A stretch of DNA of 64,000 nt. Source: Chloroflexota bacterium (lineage in GTDB: Bacteria > Chloroflexota > Anaerolineae > Promineifilales > Promineifilaceae). A model generated the notes under the pieces. The model saw only the letters and a program-made list of their open reading frames with translations, searched no databases and was not told where the DNA came from. The stretch covers positions 2,191-66,190 of the forward strand of contig JBCCSO010000001.1 in assembly GCA_039199965.1 (NCBI GenBank), given 5' to 3'. Within the stretch, counting starts at the first letter, position 1. Each line of letters begins with the position of its first letter. Below, piece by piece: positions 3,956-63,585 of the stretch. The position numbers and the translations under genes are program-made.

Positions 3956-5260
3956 ATGATCAAGAAATTAAGAGATGGTTTAACCCTCCGTACAGCCACA
4001 AAAAACGACGTAAATAATATCGCTAAATTTAATGGACGTTTGCATGAAGAGCCGGGTGAGGAAGGTAAGATCGTGGCTTGGTCACAGGATTTATTATCAG
4101 GCCTGCATCCAACAACATCTACAAAAGATTTTTTTGTTGTTGAAACAGAAAGTGGTGAAATCGTTTCATCAACGTGCAACATTCCTCAAACGTGGACGTA
4201 CGAGGATGTTTCTTTCCCAGTTGGGCGACCTGAGTTAGTGGCTACGGATGAAAATTGGCGTAAAAGAGGGCTAGTACGTGAACAGTTTGATGCTCTGCAC
4301 AAGATAAGTGAGTCAAATGGGGATTTGATGCAGGTGATCACTGGTATTCCTTGGTATTACAGACAGTTTGGCTACAGCCATGCACTTGATTTAGGCGGTG
4401 CGAGGCTGTTTGATTGGCATCGGCCGGGCAATAATCCAAAAATCAATGAGGAAGATGAAGCGTTTCAGCACCGTGAGGCCAAAGTGTCAGATATTGCTAT
4501 TCTGCAAGCATACTATCATATACACGGCTTCGATTATCTCATTAACTGCGAGCGTACAAAAATGATTTGGGCTCACGAATTAACCGGCCGATCAAAAGAT
4601 TCAATTTACAAAAAAAGTTATTGGATAGTCACCCGCAGGAACGGTGATCCTGTAGGCTATATTGGATTTGTTGTATGGCCAGTTGGGCTGTCAATCCAAG
4701 AAATTGCTTGTGATCCGAATCAATCAATGCGAGAGTTTTGCTTGTATGTTACAAGAGCCTTAAACCGATGGCGTAAGGGGCACAATCAATCTGAAGAGGA
4801 TCGGATAGAACGGCTTCTATTTTATTTAGGATATGATCATAAAGCCTATCAAGCACTCGGCCCTCAGCTTGGCCGTCAAGGCAAATCATATGCTTGGTAC
4901 ATACGCATTCCTGATATTCCTAAGTTTTTATTGCATATTCGGCCGGTACTTGAGCGACGTTTGGCAAATAGCGTGATGGTAAACCACACAGGACAGCATA
5001 AAGTAAATTTATATCAAGAACACTTTTACCTTGACTTCAAACAGGGCAAGATCACGTCAATCAAGCCATACATCCCAACACTTCCGCAAGATGGTCAAAC
5101 TCTTTTCACCCGGCCAGAATTTATTCAGCTCATTTGCGGCCATCGTTCATATGAAGAAATTAGCTTTATTCATGTTGACTGCGGCGGAAATGCAGAATCT
5201 AGTATCCTGATGAATATTTTATTTCCAAAAAAGCCCAGCCAGCCGATTGGGCTAACGTAA
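3956..5260 (+). CDS. GNAT-family N-acetyltransferase, Eis-like architecture with an extended C-terminal domain
   Basis: The acetyl-CoA binding block is WRKRGLVREQFDALH. The length of about 430 aa is typical of Eis-type GNATs with an extra C-terminal domain. The ORF track starts at GTG 3929; ATG 3956 (MIKKLRDG...) is the alternative start used here. Confidence 0.6.
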   Translation: MIKKLRDGLTLRTATKNDVNNIAKFNGRLHEEPGEEGKIVAWSQDLLSGLHPTTSTKDFFVVETESGEIVSSTCNIPQTWTYEDVSFPVGRPELVATDENWRKRGLVREQFDALHKISESNGDLMQVITGIPWYYRQFGYSHALDLGGARLFDWHRPGNNPKINEEDEAFQHREAKVSDIAILQAYYHIHGFDYLINCERTKMIWAHELTGRSKDSIYKKSYWIVTRRNGDPVGYIGFVVWPVGLSIQEIACDPNQSMREFCLYVTRALNRWRKGHNQSEEDRIERLLFYLGYDHKAYQALGPQLGRQGKSYAWYIRIPDIPKFLLHIRPVLERRLANSVMVNHTGQHKVNLYQEHFYLDFKQGKITSIKPYIPTLPQDGQTLFTRPEFIQLICGHRSYEEISFIHVDCGGNAESSILMNILFPKKPSQPIGLT

Positions 5261-6244: not shown

Positions 6245-7234
6245 ATGACATTATTGGAAGAAATCCTTCAGGCTGAAGACCGAACCCGCCAGCACATTCG
6301 TGAAACCTTCTTAGATTTTTCGCCCCGTTTCAGTGAAATAGTTGGCGGGCACGTTCTGTTTAAGCTTGAAAATCAGCAGCACACGGGCTCTTTTAAGCTT
6401 CGCGGAGCCATGAATCGAATTTATTCGCTGAGCCCTGCAGAGGCGAAACAGGGAATCGTAACAGCTTCGAGTGGCAATCATGGAGCGGCCGTCGCAAAAG
6501 CCTTGACCCTGTTTGATACACCGGGCATCGTTTACGTACCAGTGGGAACATCAAAAACTAAAGTAGAGAACATGGAGCAATATGGTATTGAAGTTCGATA
6601 TGAAGGAGATGATGGCGTCGTTGCGGAGCTAGCTGCTAGAAATTTTGCAAATGCTTCAGGCAAGACTTTTATTTCACCCTACAATGATCTACAAGTGGCG
6701 GCTGGACAAGGAACCTGTGCGGTTGAAATTGAGCGGCAATTATCTCGCGAATCGGCCGATTATGTTTTTGTAGCCGTTGGCGGTGGTGGGTTAATTTCTG
6801 GGATCGGTTGCTATCTCAAGTCAGTCTGGCCCAATGTCAAAATCATCGGCTGTCAACCTGCTCATTCAGACGTGATGGCGCAGTCAATTAAGGCTGGGGA
6901 AATCTTAGATCTGCCATCCCTTCCAACTCTAAGCGATGGCACGGCTGGAGGAATTGAGCCAAACGCAATCACATTTAATTTTGTGCAGAAGTACGTAGAT
7001 GAGTTTGCAATCGTCACAGAAAAAGAAATTGCTAATGCGATGACCCAATATATGTCAATTCATCACCAGATGATTGAAGGAGCAGCTGGGGTTGCCGTTG
7101 CCGGATTGCTTCAGAAAAAAGCAGAAATTCAAGGAAAGACATCGGTTGTGATTATCTGCGGTGGCAATATCGGCATGGATACTCTTGCAAATGTGATCAA
7201 CCAAACCTTAGATATAGATAAAGGTGGCAAATGA
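6245..7234 (+). CDS. PLP-dependent threonine/serine dehydratase-family enzyme (fold type II)
   Basis: The PLP-lysine motif is HTGSFKLRGA. The glycine loop VAVGGGGLISG is present. At 329 aa it has no ACT regulatory domain. Confidence 0.75.
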   Translation: MTLLEEILQAEDRTRQHIRETFLDFSPRFSEIVGGHVLFKLENQQHTGSFKLRGAMNRIYSLSPAEAKQGIVTASSGNHGAAVAKALTLFDTPGIVYVPVGTSKTKVENMEQYGIEVRYEGDDGVVAELAARNFANASGKTFISPYNDLQVAAGQGTCAVEIERQLSRESADYVFVAVGGGGLISGIGCYLKSVWPNVKIIGCQPAHSDVMAQSIKAGEILDLPSLPTLSDGTAGGIEPNAITFNFVQKYVDEFAIVTEKEIANAMTQYMSIHHQMIEGAAGVAVAGLLQKKAEIQGKTSVVIICGGNIGMDTLANVINQTLDIDKGGK

Positions 7235-12471: not shown

Positions 12472-13785
12472 TTATCCAATGGCGGCCTGTAAACCTTCTT
12501 CAAATCTAACAAGCGTTTCCTCCGCATCCGCGTCTGAGTGCTCTGCACAAATAAAGAATGGTTCGATGCCACCAGCCTCCGGCATAACGCCATTTACGAT
12601 CATGTGCCTATACACTTTTTCAGACAGCTCCCAGTTTGGCAACGTCTTCAGTTCACGCCAATCTTTCGGCCGCTCTTCTGAAAAACATACACCAAACATA
12701 CCGGGGGTCCCATTAATTGTGACAGGCACTCCGTGACGCTGACAGATCTCCAAAATACCATCTTGCAACATCCGGCCGTGTTTTTCAATTTTTGGGAAAA
12801 CTTCCCCGTTCTGAATCAGCTCCAGCGTCGCATCAGCCGCGGCCGTTGAAACAACGTTGCCAGTATACGTACCACCTTGAAACACACCGCCATATGTAAG
12901 CTTCATCATCAACTCTTTTTTACCGCCAAATGCAGCCACAGGAAAGCCATTTCCCATCGCTTTGGCATAGGTCGATAGATCGGGCTCAACGCCAAAATAC
13001 TCCCTTGCACCCCCGGGAGCGATCCTAAATCCAGTTTTGACTTCATCAAAAATCAGGACAATGCCATACTCATCACAAATCCGACGCAAAAAATGATGAT
13101 ATCCTTCGGCCGGAGTTAAAGCATTTGAGTTCCCCAGCATTGGCTCAACGATGATTGCGGCCACCTCATGCCCACGCTCCGCCAAAATCTCACTCAAAAC
13201 CTGTTCGTCATTCCACGGGCAAGTGATAATTAAATCATCAAAAGCCTTAGGGACCCCCAAACTATTTTTATAGGGGGTGGGTCGGCTACGACTTCCGACT
13301 TCTTCTAGTGGCGCCCCCTGTGTAGACCACATAACGCTGTCGTGCGCACCGTGGTAGGATCCCTCAAATTTCAGCACAACATCCCGGCCGGTGTACCCTC
13401 TAGCCAGCCTGATCGCATGCATAGTGCACTCGGTTCCCGTGTTTGCAAGTCTAACCATCTCTACACCCGGGCACAGATCAATAATCCGCTCACAGACGCT
13501 CACTTCATAGTGCTGGGTTGCAGCAAAGCTCACACCGTGATCGATTGCTTCTTTGACCCGATTGTTGACAAATTCATTACCATGGCCGATCAGAACCGGC
13601 CCCCAGCCCAGTCGGTAATCAATATAACGATTGCCATCGTAGTCGAAAATATGCCCTCCCTTTGCATCCTCAACTACAACAGTTTGCTCGCTCCCATAAA
13701 ATCGATAGTTAGAGCTGACCCCATACGGAGTCACTGCTTGTGCTCGCTTGAAAAACGCCTTGCTTTTGGTACCTTGCTGAATCAT
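12472..13785 (-). CDS. Class-III PLP aminotransferase (glutamate-1-semialdehyde aminomutase-like)
   Basis: 437 aa containing GSYHG, FDEVKTGFR and a PLP-lysine region YAKAMGNGFP. These match the aminotransferase class III / HemL-like family. Substrate is not assignable. Confidence 0.75.
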   Translation of the reverse strand: MIQQGTKSKAFFKRAQAVTPYGVSSNYRFYGSEQTVVVEDAKGGHIFDYDGNRYIDYRLGWGPVLIGHGNEFVNNRVKEAIDHGVSFAATQHYEVSVCERIIDLCPGVEMVRLANTGTECTMHAIRLARGYTGRDVVLKFEGSYHGAHDSVMWSTQGAPLEEVGSRSRPTPYKNSLGVPKAFDDLIITCPWNDEQVLSEILAERGHEVAAIIVEPMLGNSNALTPAEGYHHFLRRICDEYGIVLIFDEVKTGFRIAPGGAREYFGVEPDLSTYAKAMGNGFPVAAFGGKKELMMKLTYGGVFQGGTYTGNVVSTAAADATLELIQNGEVFPKIEKHGRMLQDGILEICQRHGVPVTINGTPGMFGVCFSEERPKDWRELKTLPNWELSEKVYRHMIVNGVMPEAGGIEPFFICAEHSDADAEETLVRFEEGLQAAIG

Positions 13786-16667: not shown

Positions 16668-16762
16668 CCAAGCATTATGACAGTTAAGCTACGTCGTAAG
16701 CTTGATTCTTACTGACCATTTATCACAATCACACGAATACTCTAAATTTTTAGGACGAAAAC

Positions 16763-17386
16763 ATGCCTTGGATATATGTAAAAACACACGAGGAAGCGGA
16801 AGGGCTGCTAAAAAAAGAATATGACAGTGCGATGAAGCGTGCAGGCCGTATTTGGAACATCGTCTCAATCATGAGCCAAAACCCACGGGCTATGAAAACG
16901 TCAATGGACTTTTACGGCGCATTGATGTTTGGCCCATCCCCCTTAAGCCGCAGCCAGAGAGAAATGTTGGCAACCATTGTTTCAGTTGCCAACCACTGCG
17001 TTTACTGAATCCGTGCTCATGCACACGACCTCCGGGCTGAGGTCGAGAAAGATTGGGGGCTGACAGATGTGCGCCATGCAGACCTAACTGTTCATTATAT
17101 TGCGACAGATTGGCAGAAAGCGGACTTAAGCGCAGGGGATCAAGCCTTGTGTACATACGCAGATAAACTGACAAATCATCCACAAATGATGACGGAAGCA
17201 GACATTCTCTTTTTAAAAGAATCAGGATTTGATGACCGTGCCATTCACGATGCAACACAGGTCATTTCCTACTTTAATTACATCAACCGCATTGCTGATG
17301 CACTGGATGTGGCTACTGAAGATTTTGTTCACGCTTGGGAACAATCAGCGCCAACACGAGCACCAGTTGACGCCAAGAGGACCTAA
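16763..17386 (+). CDS. AhpD/carboxymuconolactone-decarboxylase-family peroxidase-related protein; predicted selenoprotein with in-frame UGA (Sec) at 17006..17008
   Basis: Track ORFs 16763..17008 and 17069..17386 are in the same frame (both coordinates are 2 mod 3). A single TGA separates them. Read-through gives ...LSRSQREMLATIVSVANHCVY-U-IRAHAHDLRAEV...AILFLKESGFDDRAIHDATQVISYFNYINRIADALDV. The UGA sits where the family motif C-x-x-C-x-x-x-H has its second Cys. Confidence 0.75.
17026..17045 (+). promoter_or_regulatory. Candidate bacterial SECIS hairpin
   Basis: CGACCUC-CGGGCU-GAGGUCG is a 7-bp stem with a G-rich apical loop. It begins 18 nt after the UGA at 17006..17008. This is within the spacing range used by bacterial SelB-dependent recoding. 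Confidence 0.55.
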
Positions 17387-30121: not shown

Positions 30122-31045
30122 ATGTTTCAAATTATCCAGAGACGCTATTTGTATTTTGCACTCTCCGGCATGCTGATTTTGTCGGGGGTAATCGCCATGC
30201 TTATATCTTGGTCGATCGCAGGTCAGCCGTTTGGAGTTAGCGTAGACTTTGTGGGTGGCGCGCGGTTTGAAGTTCAATTTTCTGAGCCTGTTCAAGAAAG
30301 CGGCATCCGTGATGTGCTGCGTCAATTTGGACTGAGCAACCCGGCCGTTATCGAGCTGGCAGGTGAAGGGTTAACAAACGCATGGCAAATCCGCTCGGAA
30401 GCCGTGACGCCTGAGCAAGGTCAAGAAATTACCCGCGCACTTGGAGATCAGCTTGTCTCCCTTCTCCCTGACACAACACAGTTTGAGAATGTCAGCCCCT
30501 CGATAGGGGCCGAAGTAACCCGCGCAGCATGGATCGCTATCGTTGTGGCGGCCGCTATCATCTTAATCTATATCGCCATTGCATTTAGGCAAGTCCCGAG
30601 CCCCTTCCGTTACGGAGCCTGCGCAGTATCTGCGATGGTGCACGACCTTTTTATTATCTTCGGTTTTATGGCAATCATGGGTCTAATTGCAGGTTGGGAA
30701 GTAGATGCTCTTTTCGTAACGGCCGTTCTAACGATTGCCGGCTTCTCGCTTCAAGACACGATTGTCGTTTTTGACCGAATTCGGGAAAACATCGGTGTTC
30801 GCCCAAATGAGCCCTACGAAGTCATCGTCAATCGCTCAATTTTAGAAACCATTCACCGCTCGTTGGCAACCCAGCTTGCAGCGATGTTTGTGATGGTTGC
30901 TTTAATTTTGTTTGGCGGCCCTTCGATTAGACAATTTATCTCTGTCTTGTTTGTTGGCTTACTGTCTGGAACATACAGCTCAATCTTTCATGCTGTCCCG
31001 CTTCTGGCAGAATGGGAAATTCGGAGTCCATCTGAAATCATCTGA
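30122..31045 (+). CDS. secF: Protein translocase subunit SecF
   Basis: 307 aa containing GVDFVGG, DTIVVFDRIREN and six predicted TM helices. It lies immediately after secD. Confidence 0.9.
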   Translation: MFQIIQRRYLYFALSGMLILSGVIAMLISWSIAGQPFGVSVDFVGGARFEVQFSEPVQESGIRDVLRQFGLSNPAVIELAGEGLTNAWQIRSEAVTPEQGQEITRALGDQLVSLLPDTTQFENVSPSIGAEVTRAAWIAIVVAAAIILIYIAIAFRQVPSPFRYGACAVSAMVHDLFIIFGFMAIMGLIAGWEVDALFVTAVLTIAGFSLQDTIVVFDRIRENIGVRPNEPYEVIVNRSILETIHRSLATQLAAMFVMVALILFGGPSIRQFISVLFVGLLSGTYSSIFHAVPLLAEWEIRSPSEII

Positions 31046-48572: not shown

Positions 48573-48781
48573 CCCACCATAGAAATAAGCACAGTACGCT
48601 GGGCTAATGTAAGCATCAGGACCAACTTAAATTAACAAGGGAGTAAGTGACAGCATCTTTTGTCATCTTTATTTAGGCAACCTAAATTTAAGCAAAAAGC
48701 GGGTAATTGCTCGCAGAACAACCAATTTTGATCGGCGAGCATTCGTAAATCGCCAATCAAAAGTTGAAATGGAGGTTTCCC

Positions 48782-49645
48782 ATGATTCCAGGCGAGTTTG
48801 ACTACTACGCCCCCACTTCATTGGATGAAGCGGTCTCACTCCTGTCAAAACACGGCGATGACGCCAAGATTTTGGCAGGTGGACAAAGCTTGATCCCAGC
48901 CATGCGGTATCGTTTGGCACTCCCAGAAATTCTGATTGATATCACCGGAATTGACGGGATGAGCTACATTCGCGAGGACAACGGCCATCTTGCAATTGGC
49001 GCGATGACAACTGAAAGCGAATTGGAAGATTCTGAACTTGTTCAAGACGGATATGACATGCTTTCAGACGCTGCGTTCGTCATCGCAGACCCGGTAGTCC
49101 GCAACAAAGCAACGGTTGGTGGCAATATCGCCCACTCAGATCCCGCCAATGATCATCCGGCCGTCATGCTAGCATATGGCGCAGAAGTCATCTGCTTGGG
49201 TCCGGGTGGTACGCGCTCGATACCCATCGATGAGTTCTTCACTGGCCTGTTTGAAAATTCGTTGGGCGATGACGAGATTTTAACTGAAATCCGTGTGCCC
49301 CGTCCTGCAGCAAATTCTGGCACGGCCTATATAAAAATTGAGCGAAAAGTAGGTGACTACGCTATTTCAGCGGCCGCAGTAAATCTCGTTATGGATGGGG
49401 ATACAGTAGCTGGTGCACGTATTGGTCTAACCAACGTTAGTGCTACGCCCATGCGGGCTAGAAACGCAGAAGCGGCCATCATTGGAAAAATATTGACTGA
49501 TGACGTACTGGAAGCGGCCGGTGCTGCAGCCGGTGCCGAGTGTGACCCAGCGGCCGATCTACGCGGAACGGTGGAATACAAACGCGACCTCACCCGCGTC
49601 TTGGTAAAACGAGCAATTAAGAAAGCCGCCAGCAGAGCTGGATAG
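48782..49645 (+). CDS. coxM: CO dehydrogenase medium (FAD-binding) subunit
   Basis: The start at ATG 48782 (MIPGEFDYYAP) is preceded by GGAGG. LAGGQSLIP and ATVGGNIAHSDPANDHP are FAD_binding_5/CO_deh_flav_C blocks. Confidence 0.85.
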   Translation: MIPGEFDYYAPTSLDEAVSLLSKHGDDAKILAGGQSLIPAMRYRLALPEILIDITGIDGMSYIREDNGHLAIGAMTTESELEDSELVQDGYDMLSDAAFVIADPVVRNKATVGGNIAHSDPANDHPAVMLAYGAEVICLGPGGTRSIPIDEFFTGLFENSLGDDEILTEIRVPRPAANSGTAYIKIERKVGDYAISAAAVNLVMDGDTVAGARIGLTNVSATPMRARNAEAAIIGKILTDDVLEAAGAAAGAECDPAADLRGTVEYKRDLTRVLVKRAIKKAASRAG

Positions 49646-49692
49646 TGGTTAGTCGTTGGTAGATAGTCGTTAGTTTCGCTTTTGCTTACATA

Positions 49693-49726
49693 CTAACCAC
49701 TAACATCTAACCACTAACATCTAAAC
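49693..49726 (+). repeat. Tandem 14-mer (CTAACCACTAACAT x2 plus partial CTAAAC) abutting the coxS start codon
   Basis: Read directly: 49693..49706 and 49707..49720 are identical, and 49721..49726 is a partial third copy. The complementary TAGTGGTT/TAGTCGTT motifs lie at 49643..49672. Confidence 0.9.
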
Positions 49727-49728
49727 AA

Positions 49729-50226
49729 ATGTCAAAACACGAAATAACTGTAACTGTAAACGGAACTGAACATACGGAAGAAGTCGAAAGTAGGCTGCTA
49801 TTGGTCCACTTTATCCGTGAAAATCTTGATCTGACCGGCACCCACATTGGCTGTGACTCCACAAGCTGTGGTGCTTGCACGATCCAAGTAGATGGACAGA
49901 CGGTCAAAAGTTGCACCATGTTTGCGGTGCAAGCCAATGGCAAAAGCATCAAAACCATTGAAGGGATGGCAAATGGTGCTGAACTACATCCTTTACAAGA
50001 AGGATTCTGGGAAAAACATGGGCTACAGTGCGGCTACTGCACGCCCGGGATGATCATGCAGGCGGACCATCTTTTGAGCAAAAATCCAAACCCGACAGAA
50101 GAGGAAATCCGCTGGGGTATTTCTGGTAACCTGTGCCGCTGCACCGGCTACAACAAGATTGTTGAAGCGATCGAGTATGCGGCCGACAAAATGGCAAACA
50201 GTGAAACGGAGGCAGAGACAGCATAA
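49729..50226 (+). CDS. coxS: CO dehydrogenase small ([2Fe-2S]) subunit
   Basis: 165 aa. [10 protein letters not shown] is the plant-type [2Fe-2S] site. [10 protein letters not shown]...CRCTGY is the second cluster. Confidence 0.9.
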
Positions 50227-52685
50227 TGACTTATCATAATCCAAATGCCCCTCGTCACTTGGAAGACCGAGTAGAAAAACAGATTACCCCTATGGGGCCG
50301 AATGAGTCTGCAAATGTGGAAACCACGGAGGAGGTGCGTATTACCACACCGCCTGAAATTTGTGGTATGGGGCACCGAATGAAGCGGAAAGAAGATCCGC
50401 GCTTTATTCAGGGCAAAGGGAACTACGTCGATGATATTAAGTTACCCGGCATGCTGTACATGGACATTGTCCGCAGCCCCTATGCACACGCCAAAATTTT
50501 AGAAATTGATGCAAGCGAAGCTTTGGCAACAGAAGGTGTTTTGGCTGTTATCACAGGTAAAGATCTTGAAGCGCATAACTTAGCATGGATGCCTACGTTA
50601 ATGTCAGACACTCAAATGGTGTTGCCAACCGACAAAGTGGTTTACTATGCGCAGGAAGTCTGTGCCGTTGTCGCCACAAGCCGCTACATCGCGGCCGACG
50701 CCATTGAAAAAATTTACGTCGATTATGAACCACTAGACCCAGTTGTTGATCCATTTGACGCACTGAATGACAACACCCTCGTTCGTGAAGACAAAGAGGA
50801 AAAAACCAATCGGATTTGGCACTGGGAAGTAGGCGACAAAGATGCCACAGATGAGGTGTTCGCAAATGCAGCCCACGTCATCAAGCAGCATCACTACATC
50901 CCGCGTATTCATGTTTCTTCGATTGAAACCTGCGGTATGGTGGCAAACTACAACAGCGCCACTGGCAAAATGCAGCTTTTCATGACAACGCAGGCACCCC
51001 ACGCTATTCGCACCGTTTTCGCTTTGGTAGCAGGGCTGCCTGAGCACAAAATTCAGGTGGTATCACCCGATATTGGCGGTGGATTTGGCGGTAAGGTTCC
51101 CGTTTATCCGGGGTATGTGATTTGTGCGGCCGCTTCTCTCTTGATTGGCAAACCGGTCAAATGGATCGAAGATCGCTCAGAGAATTTACAGGCAGATAGT
51201 TTTGCTCGTGATTATCATCTAGACGCGGAACTCGCGGCCGATGAGAACGGAAAAATCATTGGATTGCGCGTTAATGGTCTGGCTGACCATGGCTGTGCTG
51301 ACGCGGCCGCCAATCCTTCAAAATTCCCGGCCGGATTGTTCTCAATTTGTACCGGTTCATACGACATGCAGGCGGCTCACGTTAACTTCGACGCCGTGTA
51401 CACCAACAAGCCCCCCGGTGGTGTAGCTTATCGCTGCTCATTCCGTGTGACAGAAGCGGTGCAAATGATTGAGCGCATGACTGACATGATGGCGCACGAG
51501 CTGGGTGTAGATCCAGCCGACTATCGGATGCGTAACTTCATCCAGCCAGAAGATTTTCCATACGAGTCCCCTACTGGCTGGCACTACGACAGTGGTAACT
51601 ACCCGGCCGCATTGCAGAAAGCGATGGATATGATCGGGTATGACGAGCTGCGTAAAGAGCAGGCGGAAATGCGCAAAGAAGGAAAGCTGATGGGGATTGG
51701 TATTTCCAGCTTTACAGAAGTCGTTGGCGCAGGGCCAAGCCGCGACTACGACATTTTGGGGATCAAGATGTTTGACTCGGCCGAAATTCGCATCCATCCA
51801 ACCGGCAAAGCGATAGCCCGCTTTGGCACCAAGTCACAGGGGCAGGGTCATGAAACAACCTACGCTCAGATCTTAGCAGAAGAGTTGGGGTTGCCAGCGG
51901 CCGACATCGAGATTGAAGAAGGGGACACCGATACGGCGCCATACGGTTTGGGTACATACGCCAGTCGTTCAACCCCCACGGCCGGGGCTGCGGCCGCCAT
52001 GGCAGCACGGAAGATCAAAGCCAAAGCCAAGAAAATCGCCGCTTACTTGCTCGAAGTAAACGAAGATGACCTTGAGTGGAACATCAATCAGTGGCAGGTG
52101 AAAGGGTCTCCTGAGCAGGCAAAAACAATCCAAGACATTGCATTTGCTGCCTACACCAACCATCCACCGGGCATGGAAGCTGGCCTCGAAGCAACTGACT
52201 ACTATGATCCACCCAACTTGACCTTCCCATTCGGCTCGTACATCGCTGTGGTAGATATTGACACCGGCACCGGGATGGTTGAAATTCGCCGCTTTGTGGC
52301 GATTGACGACTGTGGCAACATCATCAACCCACTTGTGGTTGAAGGTCAGGTCCACGGTGGTTTGACGATGGGATTGGCGCCTGCCATGTACGAAGAAATC
52401 GTTTACGATGAAAATGGGCAGTGTCTAACCGGCACTTTCGCAGACTACTTGGTTCCAACGGCCGTAGAGTCACCCAAATGGGAAACCGGCCACACAATCA
52501 CACCCTCACCTCACCATCCAATTGGTGCAAAAGGTGTGGGTGAATCACCAACAGTTGGTGCGCCACCCGCCATCGCCAATGCTGTAGTCGATGCGATGTG
52601 GCACCTTGGTGTGCGTCACATTGACATCCCCATCACACCGCAAAAGGTGTGGAAAGCTCTGCGCGATGCAGGTGTTAACGACTAG
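50226..52685 (+). CDS. coxL: Form-I aerobic CO dehydrogenase large (molybdopterin) subunit
   Basis: 819 aa. The active-site loop reads GGVAYRCSFRVTEA. AYxCSFR is the established form-I CoxL signature; form II has AYRGAGR. The start overlaps the coxS stop (ATAATG). Confidence 0.9.
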   Translation: MTYHNPNAPRHLEDRVEKQITPMGPNESANVETTEEVRITTPPEICGMGHRMKRKEDPRFIQGKGNYVDDIKLPGMLYMDIVRSPYAHAKILEIDASEALATEGVLAVITGKDLEAHNLAWMPTLMSDTQMVLPTDKVVYYAQEVCAVVATSRYIAADAIEKIYVDYEPLDPVVDPFDALNDNTLVREDKEEKTNRIWHWEVGDKDATDEVFANAAHVIKQHHYIPRIHVSSIETCGMVANYNSATGKMQLFMTTQAPHAIRTVFALVAGLPEHKIQVVSPDIGGGFGGKVPVYPGYVICAAASLLIGKPVKWIEDRSENLQADSFARDYHLDAELAADENGKIIGLRVNGLADHGCADAAANPSKFPAGLFSICTGSYDMQAAHVNFDAVYTNKPPGGVAYRCSFRVTEAVQMIERMTDMMAHELGVDPADYRMRNFIQPEDFPYESPTGWHYDSGNYPAALQKAMDMIGYDELRKEQAEMRKEGKLMGIGISSFTEVVGAGPSRDYDILGIKMFDSAEIRIHPTGKAIARFGTKSQGQGHETTYAQILAEELGLPAADIEIEEGDTDTAPYGLGTYASRSTPTAGAAAAMAARKIKAKAKKIAAYLLEVNEDDLEWNINQWQVKGSPEQAKTIQDIAFAAYTNHPPGMEAGLEATDYYDPPNLTFPFGSYIAVVDIDTGTGMVEIRRFVAIDDCGNIINPLVVEGQVHGGLTMGLAPAMYEEIVYDENGQCLTGTFADYLVPTAVESPKWETGHTITPSPHHPIGAKGVGESPTVGAPPAIANAVVDAMWHLGVRHIDIPITPQKVWKALRDAGVND

Positions 52686-54078: not shown

Positions 54079-55068
54079 ATGTTTGACGACTACTTCTCAA
54101 AAGCCCATGAACTAAATAAAAAGGGAGAGCCTTTTGTCACTGCAACGGTCGTCCGCGCAGAAAAACCAACCTCTGGCAAACCGGGTGACAAAGCGATTGT
54201 CACCATAGACGGGGTCATGCATGGCTGGATCGGTGGCTCATGTGCGCAGCCAACGGTAGTTAAAGAGGCATTGAAGGCGTTAAGTGATGACGAAAGCCGA
54301 TTGATTAGACTCTCCACAAATCCTGAAAACCAAATGTCAAGAGAAGGATTGCTTGATCTACCGATGACTTGCTTTAGCGGCGGCACACTTGAAATTTACA
54401 TTGAGCCGGTCCGGCCGAAACCGCGCTTGCTCATTATTGGGAATTTGCCGGTAGCACAAGCATTGTGCCACTTGGGTCACGCGATGAATTACCACGTGAT
54501 TGCGGCCGATCCTGACACAAAAGGGGCTGGTATGCCACACGCCAATGAAGTGATCACCGATCTTGAGCAAATCGGAGATGCGATTTCTCCCATGACATAC
54601 GTAGTAGTCGCTACACACGGCAATTTTGATGAAGTTGCACTTGAAAAAGCGATCAAAGCCCATGTGCCTTATGTGGGATTGGTAGCTAGCAAACGGAGGG
54701 CATCGGCCGTGCGCGAGTATTTGCATATGGCTGGCTATGATGACAATGACCTACTGGCTCTAAAAGCCCCGGCCGGGCTCGACATTCAGGCCCGCCGTGG
54801 TGATGAGATTGCGCTAAGCATTATGGCTGAAATTGTAGAGCGCAGACGGACGGCCGAGAATCTAGACCTAACCCTCATGCGGGAGCAGTTCGAGGTTGAA
54901 GTTGAAGCCCCTGATATAGCCATCGATCCGATTTGCCAAATGGAAGTAGTCATTGAAACAGCTAAACACAAGCATGAGCACAATGGAGAAATGTTTTACT
55001 TTTGCTGCCCAGCCTGCAAAAGAACCTTTGCCAAAGACCCTGAACCGTTTTTAGCAGCGGTGCCTTAA
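54079..55068 (+). CDS. XdhC/CoxI(F)-family molybdoenzyme maturation protein fused to a C-terminal YHS/TRASH metal-binding domain
   Basis: The N-terminal FVTATVVRAEKPTSGKPGDKAIV is XdhC_CoxI-like. The central Rossmann-like segment is RLLIIGNLPVAQAL. The C-terminal DPICQMEV...GEMFYFCCPACKRTFAKDP matches the YHS pattern (DPVCGM...YYFCS..C...F). Confidence 0.75.
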   Translation: MFDDYFSKAHELNKKGEPFVTATVVRAEKPTSGKPGDKAIVTIDGVMHGWIGGSCAQPTVVKEALKALSDDESRLIRLSTNPENQMSREGLLDLPMTCFSGGTLEIYIEPVRPKPRLLIIGNLPVAQALCHLGHAMNYHVIAADPDTKGAGMPHANEVITDLEQIGDAISPMTYVVVATHGNFDEVALEKAIKAHVPYVGLVASKRRASAVREYLHMAGYDDNDLLALKAPAGLDIQARRGDEIALSIMAEIVERRRTAENLDLTLMREQFEVEVEAPDIAIDPICQMEVVIETAKHKHEHNGEMFYFCCPACKRTFAKDPEPFLAAVP

Positions 55069-62733: not shown

Positions 62734-63585
62734 TTAGGCGCGATCTACCGCTTTCTTGATTGCGCGCTTAACAAAAACAGACGCCATTTCTCTGCGATAG
62801 TCGGCACTCGCATGAATATCGCTCATGATATCATCGCCTAAATCTGAGACAACAGCAGCAGCGGCCGCTTCAATATTCTCATCTGTCATCTCTTTACCAG
62901 CAAGGGCGGCTTCAACAGAGTCACAGCGCTGAGCTGCTGGCACTAATCCACCTATTGCAACAGATGCTGACTCGCAAGTGCTGCCATTCATCTTCACAGA
63001 TACAGCCGCACCCACAATTGCATAGCGCGATGCCGGATTAAACAACTTTGAATAAGCTGTTCCGGTTCCGCTGGATTTAGCCGGAACACTAACACCTGTT
63101 AGCAGTTCGTCTTCATCCATTGCAGTTTCAAATAGACCGGTGAAGAAGTCATCGGCCGATACATTTCGGCTACCACCTTCTCCAGTCACTTCCATCGTTG
63201 CGCCCAGAGCGGTCAAGACCGTTGGCAAGTCAGAAGCAGGATCAGCATGGGCGATATTCCCACCAACTGTTCCGCGATTGCGTACCATCGGGTCACCGAT
63301 CCAGCTTGCTGCTTCCGGCAGAGCGTCGGGCAGAGTGTCTGAGCCTTCAACCATTGCGTGGGTGGTCAATGATCCAATTTTGATCGAACCATTATTTTGG
63401 TTAATGCCTCTCAGGTCGTCAATCCGGCCGATGTCAACAATGCACCCGGGGTCAGCCAAGCGCAGCTTCATGACAGGAATCAGGCTGTGACCGCCTGCCA
63501 TAAACTTTCCGTCGTGTTCTTTTCTAAGCGCAATCGCCTCTTGAACGGACGAAGCGCGGTGATAATCAAATTTTGGTGGATACAT
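62734..63585 (-). CDS. FAD-binding medium subunit of a second xanthine-dehydrogenase/CODH-family enzyme (CoxM paralogue)
   Basis: 283 aa containing MAGGHSLIP and GTVGGNIAHADPASDLP. The architecture matches that of coxM at 48782. Confidence 0.8.
   Translation of the reverse strand: MYPPKFDYHRASSVQEAIALRKEHDGKFMAGGHSLIPVMKLRLADPGCIVDIGRIDDLRGINQNNGSIKIGSLTTHAMVEGSDTLPDALPEAASWIGDPMVRNRGTVGGNIAHADPASDLPTVLTALGATMEVTGEGGSRNVSADDFFTGLFETAMDEDELLTGVSVPAKSSGTGTAYSKLFNPASRYAIVGAAVSVKMNGSTCESASVAIGGLVPAAQRCDSVEAALAGKEMTDENIEAAAAAVVSDLGDDIMSDIHASADYRREMASVFVKRAIKKAVDRA

Follow-up and report, generated by a model that had tools for sequence, protein, structure and literature searches.

An AhpD-like gene from an Anaerolineae-like Chloroflexota with an in-frame UGA predicted to encode selenocysteine

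The gene at positions 16763-17386 (forward strand) of a 64-kb stretch of Chloroflexota DNA, hereafter the window, carries an in-frame UGA at 17006-17008. This UGA is predicted to be decoded as selenocysteine (Sec), which would make the product an AhpD-like selenoprotein with a selenocysteine insertion sequence (SECIS) hairpin directly downstream of the recoded codon. Judging from the sequence and its comparison with homologues, we give this reading a probability of about 90%. A single gene of the AhpD-like family, a conserved UGA at the position of a Cys, a hairpin under constraint at the RNA level and a standard genetic code have all been observed.

Sequence and translation give one gene of 207 codons, which runs from ATG 16763 to a terminal TAA and in which the TGA at 17006-17008 is the sole stop in frame. 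An earlier note on this DNA had described two open reading frames (ORFs), 16763..17008 and 17069..17386, that share one frame and are interrupted only by this TGA, and the description is correct. Around the stop, the read-through product has the sequence ...S-V-A-N-H-C-V-Y-[TGA]-I-R-A-H-A-H-D-L-R-A-E-V... The ATG at 16763 is the true start. The features of the gene are given below by position, strand and description.

16752..16755, forward strand: Shine-Dalgarno-like AGGA, 7 nt upstream of ATG 16763, read from the sequence.
16763..17386, forward strand: predicted AhpD-like selenoprotein coding sequence, complete, 207 residues including Sec82, stop TAA at 17384-17386; assigned from TIGR01926, PF02627 and collinear orthologues.
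16961..16963, forward strand: Glu67 codon GAA, equivalent to Glu118 of the AhpD proton relay, 12 residues before Cys79.
16997..16999, forward strand: Cys79 codon TGC, first Cys of C-x-x-U, invariant in alignment A2.
17006..17008, forward strand: in-frame UGA, predicted Sec82 codon, a conserved TGA that aligns with the second Cys of CxxC.
17018..17020, forward strand: His86 codon CAT, equivalent to AhpD His137, invariant, located after the UGA and before the first codon at which translation could restart.
17069..17386, forward strand: spurious "second ORF" with a GTG start, the C-terminal part of the same gene according to the translation and the TIGR01926 match.

A mechanical list of ORFs gives exactly these two frames, which could be read as two genes encoding an 81-residue N-terminal protein and a 105-residue protein from GTG 17069. 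However, both fall within one domain model. When the stop is replaced by Cys, the read-through protein matches TIGR01926 ("peroxidase-related enzyme", NCBIfam) with 137.2 bits against a cutoff of 81.8. Because this match is continuous across both ORFs, placing residues 2-185 on profile positions 1-175 of 178, the sequence indicates that 16763..17386 is one gene and not two. The second ORF has only a GTG start, lacks a Shine-Dalgarno sequence and begins in the middle of the domain, as the earlier note had pointed out, and GTG 17069 shows no conservation as a start codon. From the UGA to this GTG there are 20 codons, which include the invariant, catalytic His86 and are conserved as protein. Their differences from orthologues lie mostly at third codon positions (3/1/12 at positions 1/2/3 in the comparison with the orthologous locus L014), which implies that the stretch is translated in this frame. 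The Cys-containing homologues are single proteins of ~190 residues, and the orthologues L001-L010 are collinear with the window protein over residues 1-199. The chance that two separate genes are present is negligible.

The TIGR01926 match also agrees with the earlier assignment of the 207-residue product to the AhpD/carboxymuconolactone decarboxylase (CMD) "peroxidase-related" type. The Pfam CMD model PF02627 matches the read-through protein as well, and the AhpD core domain model TIGR00778 scores 37 bits against a cutoff of 27.8. The AhpD equivalog model (TIGR00777-type) has no match to the read-through protein in the NCBIfam scan, which returns the core domain and TIGR01926 only. From these profiles, the product is very probably an AhpD-like thiol/selenol oxidoreductase of the TIGR01926 subfamily with the AhpD/CMD fold. 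Its active site reads E67-x11-C79-x2-U82-x3-H86. In the AhpD of Mycobacterium tuberculosis, the proton relay is formed by Glu118, Cys130, Cys133 and His137 with the spacing E-x11-C-x2-C-x3-H (PMC3141380), and the window protein reproduces both this spacing and the AhpD/CMD core fold (TIGR00778) of the M. tuberculosis protein (Rv2429). Glu67 is invariant in alignment A2 and is present in at least 90% of alignment A1.

The earlier note had placed the stop on the second Cys of the motif C-x-x-C-x-x-x-H and had called for an alignment to Cys homologues, and this alignment confirms the placement. In alignment A1, the Cys homologues read C-R-Y-C or S-T-R-Y-C with a Cys at the Sec position, and the UGA aligns with the second Cys of CxxC in these homologues, in PDB 6k40 and in the TGC forms described below. 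The S-T-R-Y-C form belongs to one clade in which the first Cys has been lost and the second kept. The nearest solved structures are all of the "peroxidase-related" AhpD family, namely 6k40 (E = 2.5e-26), followed by 3c1l (Mlr4105), 2oyo, 2pfx and 2prr; these matches are full-length in sequence, with E-values from 2.5e-26 to 7.9e-16. The segment N-R-C-V-Y-C-A-V-S-H of 6k40 aligns with N-H-C-V-Y-U-I-R-A-H of the window protein, and both structures whose alignments were inspected, 6k40 and 3c1l, have a Cys where the window has Sec. The window protein differs from the Cys forms of alignment A1 by an insertion of ~8 residues after the D-L-R-A-E-V helix. Its best identity in the protein collection searched is 81%.

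The codon at the Sec position has been counted in the 96 loci in which the motif could be located, comprising 95 homologous loci and the window. TGA is found in 89 of them, TGC (Cys) in four and TGG in three. A scan of one genome per species yielded 10 orthologues with 61-71% identity, all of which have TGA at the identical codon. They come from metagenome-assembled genomes (MAGs) labelled Chloroflexota, Calditrichota, Latescibacterota, Gemmatimonadota and Acidobacteriota, plus one labelled Cellvibrionaceae, the closest being those of Anaerolineae and Promineifilaceae MAGs. Another 80 loci came from a scan of metagenomes. Protein identity across the TGA-bearing loci ranges from 42 to 81%, and several phyla are represented. 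This distribution bears on the explanation that the gene is a pseudogene, in which a recent TGA nonsense mutation has struck a Cys-type gene and at most an 81-residue N-terminal fragment is made. Taken alone, the sequence does show what would be an ordinary stop, and Sec machinery has not been found in the 64-kb window. A recent mutation does not account for an identical-codon TGA in 89/96 loci of such divergence, nor for the in-frame purifying selection on the downstream half and the RNA-level constraint on the hairpin, and a pseudogene is very improbable.

The protein databases contain a different picture of the same codon. Among the best 120 protein-database matches, 66 have "W" recorded at the Sec position, as would suit an alternative genetic code that reads TGA as an amino acid (Trp under table 4, Gly under table 25) and makes the gene an ordinary full-length ORF. 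On the other hand, the sole "W" entry checked at the DNA level (P0001, locus L014:465-467) has TGA at this codon and is a code-4 gene call on a short contig. In the window, 45 long ORFs (at least 150 aa, with four that overlap larger genes excluded) were scanned against NCBIfam. TGA terminates six of these, including those for a threonine/serine dehydratase (6245..7234) and SecF (30122..31045), both of which align full-length to their profiles. Since TGA ends ordinary long ORFs, the genetic code is standard, with TGA serving as a normal stop in the rest of the window. The Anaerolineae-like Chloroflexota are not a group known for recoding, which also counts against an alternative code, and this explanation has next to no probability. 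Approximately 40 of the same 120 matches are C-terminal halves that begin with M/V-R-A-H-A-H-D-L-R. Together with the "W" entries, they look like a systematic annotation artefact for the family, in keeping with the earlier expectation that standard gene callers would miss or split this gene.

Some relatives carry codons other than TGA or TGC at the Sec position. A genuine TGG (Trp) is found in one lineage in three independent assemblies (L011:3244-3246, L012:1660-1662 and L013:790-792, protein P0011). The hairpin of this lineage is intact (GACCUC-CGUGAA-GAGGUC, -9.4 kcal/mol), and the change looks like a recent swap of Sec for Trp, not Cys. A second lineage, represented by two assemblies (L099:3001-3582 and L100:638-1219, protein P0022), has AGA (Arg), one nucleotide from TGA; its hairpin is that of the window apart from the closing base pair, with -9.2 kcal/mol. 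In the database proteins P0107, P0109, P0110, P0115 and P0118, the AhpD-like C-terminal half runs stop-free into YqeY (PF09424), giving products of ~203-218 aa, which suggests a gene fusion in a lineage near L005 (Candidatus Trichofilum).

The second line of evidence for Sec insertion is the RNA hairpin downstream of the UGA. The earlier note had proposed the hairpin CGACCUC-CGGGCU-GAGGUCG, 18 nt downstream, as compatible with a bacterial SECIS. The hairpin is present as described, its first base being the 18th nucleotide after the UGA, and its compatibility with a SECIS has been upheld by published criteria, by covariation and by a covariance-model match. Two hairpins are predicted downstream of the UGA.

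17026..17045, forward strand: predicted SECIS hairpin, with 5' arm 17026-17032 CGACCUC, loop 17033-17038 CGGGCU and 3' arm 17039-17045 GAGGUCG.
17013..17024, forward strand: mini-hairpin GUGC-UCAU-GCAC of 4 bp, formed by the R-A-H-A codons, predicted in the 43-nt fold and located between the UGA and the SECIS stem.

The bacterial SECIS consensus has a loop of 3-9 nt, a stem of 4-16 bp, a UGA-to-loop distance of 16-37 nt and a minimum free energy (MFE) of -7.5 kcal/mol or lower; loop position 1 or 2 is a G, and the next base is usually G or U (PMC13188914, Fig. 2 legend). The window hairpin has a 6-nt loop on a 7-bp stem. Its loop, C-G-G-G-C-U, has a G at position 2 that is followed by another G, and its energy is -10.2 kcal/mol for the hairpin alone. 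The UGA-to-loop spacing is 24 nt (17009-17032) and is identical in all orthologues, as there are no indels. The MFE cutoff is passed by 54/86 of the orthologue hairpins and by 84/86 of the 48-nt segments. When the window sequence is folded on its own, the 20-nt hairpin has z = -2.2 and the 43-nt stretch z = -2.5, with z = -0.96 and z = -1.22 in wider contexts of 60 nt and 101 nt. The folding of one sequence is weakly informative and does not establish the hairpin as an element; comparative evidence is needed.

This evidence has been obtained from a gap-free alignment of 86 distinct UGA-containing orthologues. The stem positions are paired in 89.9% of cells, compared with 26-46% when the 3' partners are slid. 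Changes on both sides of a pair number 34, against 8.1 +/- 2.5 in shuffled alignments, and 0/500 shuffles reach 34. An example is the pair of columns 24 and 37, for which 67 sequences have C-G and 14 have U-A, with the Asp codon becoming GAU exactly where the partner codon begins with A. This switch is seen in several motif clades (...AEI, ...SET and ...QET/EET), including genes whose G+C content at third codon positions (GC3) is 0.6-0.83.

Codon choice in the loop and the stem is limited as well. Loop positions 1-3 are C-G-[G/U] in 86/86 orthologues, so that the loop Arg codon is CGU in 52 and CGG in 34 and is never CGC, CGA or AGR. As a control, five further Arg sites that are invariant in these genes were compared, and there CGC is used most often, 21-47 times per site. 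The stem Leu codon is CUC in 79/81 sequences, against 33-46% at control Leu sites. Even AT-rich genes (GC3 0.17-0.24) retain GAU-CUC-CGG, and the loop of the AT-rich clade is a GGUC tetraloop. The fdhF loop is also GGUC. Covariation and codon limits thus go beyond what the protein requires, and the hairpin is selected at the RNA level. A covariance model was also built from 85 orthologues, leaving the window out. Its sole real match in the 64-kb window is 17006-17053 (59.6 bits, E ~3e-21), and the next-best score is 5.6 bits; the earlier note had suggested a check of this kind.

The window hairpin resembles SECIS elements of the Escherichia coli fdhF type in being located within the coding sequence right after the UGA, in its small apical loop with G-[G/U] and in a spacing that falls within 16-37 nt. 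Unlike them, it has an unrelated primary sequence, and no bulged U is evident in this predicted SECIS. The mini-hairpin at 17013-17024 was considered as a possible part of the conserved element. In some close relatives third-position changes keep its pairing (GGGC/GCCC, GCGC/GCGC). It was rejected, with column pairs 8/19 and 9/18 being paired in only 33 and 27 of the 86 sequences.

Several observations weigh against Sec decoding or lessen the support for it. The stem is partly pre-encoded by the conserved peptide D-L-R-x-E-V, through the D-L and E-V codons, and for this reason the comparative tests were made at positions that the protein leaves free. The covariance model also captures coding conservation, which makes it supportive and not independent. 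The Cys, Trp and Arg forms keep much of the hairpin, so the presence of the hairpin alone is not diagnostic. The hairpin is weakened in 6/7 of the Cys forms (-2.3 to -5.4 kcal/mol), and as a control this relaxation is only suggestive, as it comes from one or two clades in which the loop Arg codon is still CGG or CGA. No Rfam family matches the hairpin, either at the gathering threshold over the whole window or in a permissive scan of 16950-17120; the scans returned only a tRNA-Arg and a chance miRNA match. No selA, selB, selD or tRNA-Sec is found in the 64-kb window, a result that is uninformative for the whole genome. In addition, no experimental verification of Sec in any AhpD-like protein was found in the literature searched.

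The only tRNA in the window, which has a G+C content of 46%, is the tRNA-Arg. Three ORFs at 22.9-27.5 kb, with 354, 466 and 605 aa, have the right sizes for the Sel proteins and were found to be Opp/Nik ABC-transporter components. Six other pairs of ORFs separated by an in-frame TGA were considered as further selenoprotein genes in the window and were rejected, since all of them overlap long genes in another frame or on the other strand. In related metagenomic loci of the ...DLRAEG clade, a tRNA-Sec with anticodon UCA lies 0.8-2 kb from the orthologue (L091:1991-2083, L092:11-103 and L096:347-441, all on the minus strand). In L091 and L096, the ORFs that separate the AhpD-like gene from the tRNA-Sec were considered as SelA candidates and are not SelA, giving no match or only a weak match to the ZirU family.

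These data also bear on whether the UGA could be read through without Sec. In that case a near-cognate tRNA would insert Trp or Cys, the hairpin would be a generic stimulator of read-through, and the host might not have the Sec trait. The TGG (L011-L013) and AGA (L099/L100) lineages with their intact hairpins imply that a residue other than Sec or Cys can persist at this position, and the Sec machinery of the host has not been seen in the 64-kb window. Against this, the hairpin fits the SelB-type bacterial SECIS model exactly, including the G-[G/U] loop dinucleotide in 86/86 orthologues (PMC13188914). The position is that of a catalytic Cys in the homologues, a tRNA-Sec is near the gene in three loci, and the AhpD-like family is standard in selenoprotein catalogues. 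Sec-free read-through is improbable, although less so than a pseudogene, and we retain Sec insertion as the preferred reading.

If the UGA is decoded as Sec, SelB-GTP carrying Sec-tRNA(Sec) would bind the hairpin at 17026-17045 as the ribosome approaches, and, competing with release factor 2, would bring Sec82 into the A site. The U82 selenolate would, by analogy with the AhpD of M. tuberculosis, be the exposed residue that attacks. Its target may be an oxidised partner (for example a peroxiredoxin), with which it would form a mixed selenenylsulfide, or a peroxide substrate; C79 would then resolve this intermediate to give an intramolecular Se-S bond, to be re-reduced by an upstream reductant. 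We infer Sec insertion itself, the roles of both redox residues and the substrates in this scheme.

Of the two Cys residues in M. tuberculosis AhpD, Cys130 lies partly buried, whereas the second, Cys133, is exposed and forms a cross-link to Cys61 of AhpC (PMC6626918, which cites Bryk 2002 and Koshkin 2004). Because Cys133 attacks in this protein, and because the S-T-R-Y-C clade keeps only the second Cys, Sec most likely replaces the attacking Cys (the Cys133 equivalent), with C79 as the resolving residue. The label "resolving Cys" that the earlier note had given to the recoded position is therefore probably wrong. We take U82 to be the residue that attacks by analogy with M. tuberculosis AhpD, and in Burkholderia thailandensis AhpD the first Cys has been reported to be the more important (PMC6626918).

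M. tuberculosis AhpD is an adaptor that re-reduces AhpC, and electrons follow the path NADH -> Lpd -> DlaT -> AhpD -> AhpC (PMC12028322). The window gene differs from this system in having no match to the AhpD equivalog model, in the Sec that takes the place of Cys133 and in its surroundings, with no ahpC-type match at E <= 1e-30 among the scanned window ORFs of at least 150 aa. Some relatives of the window gene lie beside a gene for a lipoyl-bearing E2 component, E2(lipoyl), and echo the Lpd/DlaT path. In the clade with the motif A-H-L-H-D-[LF]-R, 2-oxoacid dehydrogenase genes precede the AhpD-like gene and share its strand. Each of the 11 loci of this clade named below has an E2(lipoyl) gene. 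It is directly upstream in the Cys forms L015, L016, L017, L055, L101, L102 and L103 and in the Sec forms L044:1786-4537, L049:1692-4537 and L070:3-2110, and it is separated by a gap of ~1 kb in the Sec form L046:701-4543. The E2 gene of L044 stops at 3993, and the AhpD-like gene follows from 4001. The E1-beta gene is present wherever the upstream flank is long enough (L015, L044, L046, L049, L070, L101 and L102).

The adjacency of E1 and E2 genes suggests a redox role linked to lipoyl-E2. Since the sister-clade gene directly follows an E1/E2(lipoyl) operon, a lipoyl-E2/Lpd route is plausible as the source of reductant. For the window gene, which stands alone between oppositely oriented genes, such a route is a hypothesis by analogy. 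Two broader and more tentative proposals are, in our view, possible but rather doubtful. In the first, the Sec and Cys forms of the clade are products of the last gene of an E1/E2(lipoyl) operon, and the TIGR01926 selenoproteins would be lipoyl-E2-coupled selenol reductases through which 2-oxoacid dehydrogenase complexes are linked to peroxide or disulfide reduction. In the second, a SECIS stem made from the D-L-R-x-E-V codons of the catalytic helix ties protein and RNA evolution together, and the hairpins are "fossils" in the lineages that swapped Sec for Trp (TGG) or Arg (AGA) and not for Cys. Neither lipoyl-E2 coupling nor "fossil" SECIS hairpins were found described in a limited search of the literature.

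The window gene belongs to an already known selenoprotein family, catalogued since 2005, and is nothing new in kind. As the earlier note had stated, the family has appeared in surveys of selenoproteomes. The "AhpD-like protein" (COG2128, CxxU) was described by Zhang, Fomenko and Gladyshev in 2005 as a new selenoprotein family, with 27 sequences from the Sargasso Sea and a predicted SECIS (PMC1088965). In the 2008 analysis of the Global Ocean Sampling (GOS) data, "AhpD-like 1" (COG2128, CxxU) comprised 299 sequences and was the fourth most abundant prokaryotic selenoprotein family (PMC2398784). A 2026 review lists "AhpD-like protein, TIGR01926, CxxU" (PMC13188914), and the database BSepDB takes the AhpD-like family as its worked example (PMC13326102). 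The window gene equals the published CxxU family in its TIGR01926 match and in having Sec at the second Cys. It also shares the SECIS directly downstream with a G in the apical loop, the environmental spread and the existence of Cys homologues. There is no essential difference; the window gene is from an Anaerolineae-like Chloroflexota, stands alone and has at most 81% identity.

The main value of the analysis is for annotation, as standard gene callers truncate, split or mistranslate AhpD-like selenoprotein genes. The alignment of 86 SECIS sequences and the covariance model can be reused for annotating this family. The gene also marks its host as a probable user of selenocysteine. This host is an Anaerolineae-like Chloroflexota, as the GlyA encoded in the window shares 80-81% identity with proteins labelled Candidatus Promineifilaceae and Anaerolineae.

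Synteny of the window gene with L001 and L002 extends to the downstream 408-aa neighbour only. L002 (JBLIMP010000037.1), a contig labelled Cellvibrionaceae, and the Anaerolineae MAG L001 have nearly identical AhpD-like genes. The downstream genes of L002, of 408 aa and 159 aa, are syntenic with the window and have 59% and 52% identity. The L002 contig is probably mis-binned Chloroflexota.

Elsewhere in the window, a CoxM/CoxS/CoxL-type aerobic carbon-monoxide dehydrogenase cluster is found at 48764-52685 (forward strand), together with a gene for an XdhC-like maturation factor and, near the window end, a second FAD-binding subunit gene, at 54079-55068 (forward strand) and 62734-63585 (minus strand). 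The large subunit of the carbon-monoxide dehydrogenase matches TIGR02416 with 1220 bits against a cutoff of 991. The gene at 12472-13785 (minus strand) encodes a pyridoxal phosphate-dependent aminotransferase that resembles HemL and matches NF041362, "guanitoxin biosynthesis transaminase GntE", with 580 bits against a cutoff of 525. This name is unexpected in a Chloroflexota-like genome and is probably over-specific.

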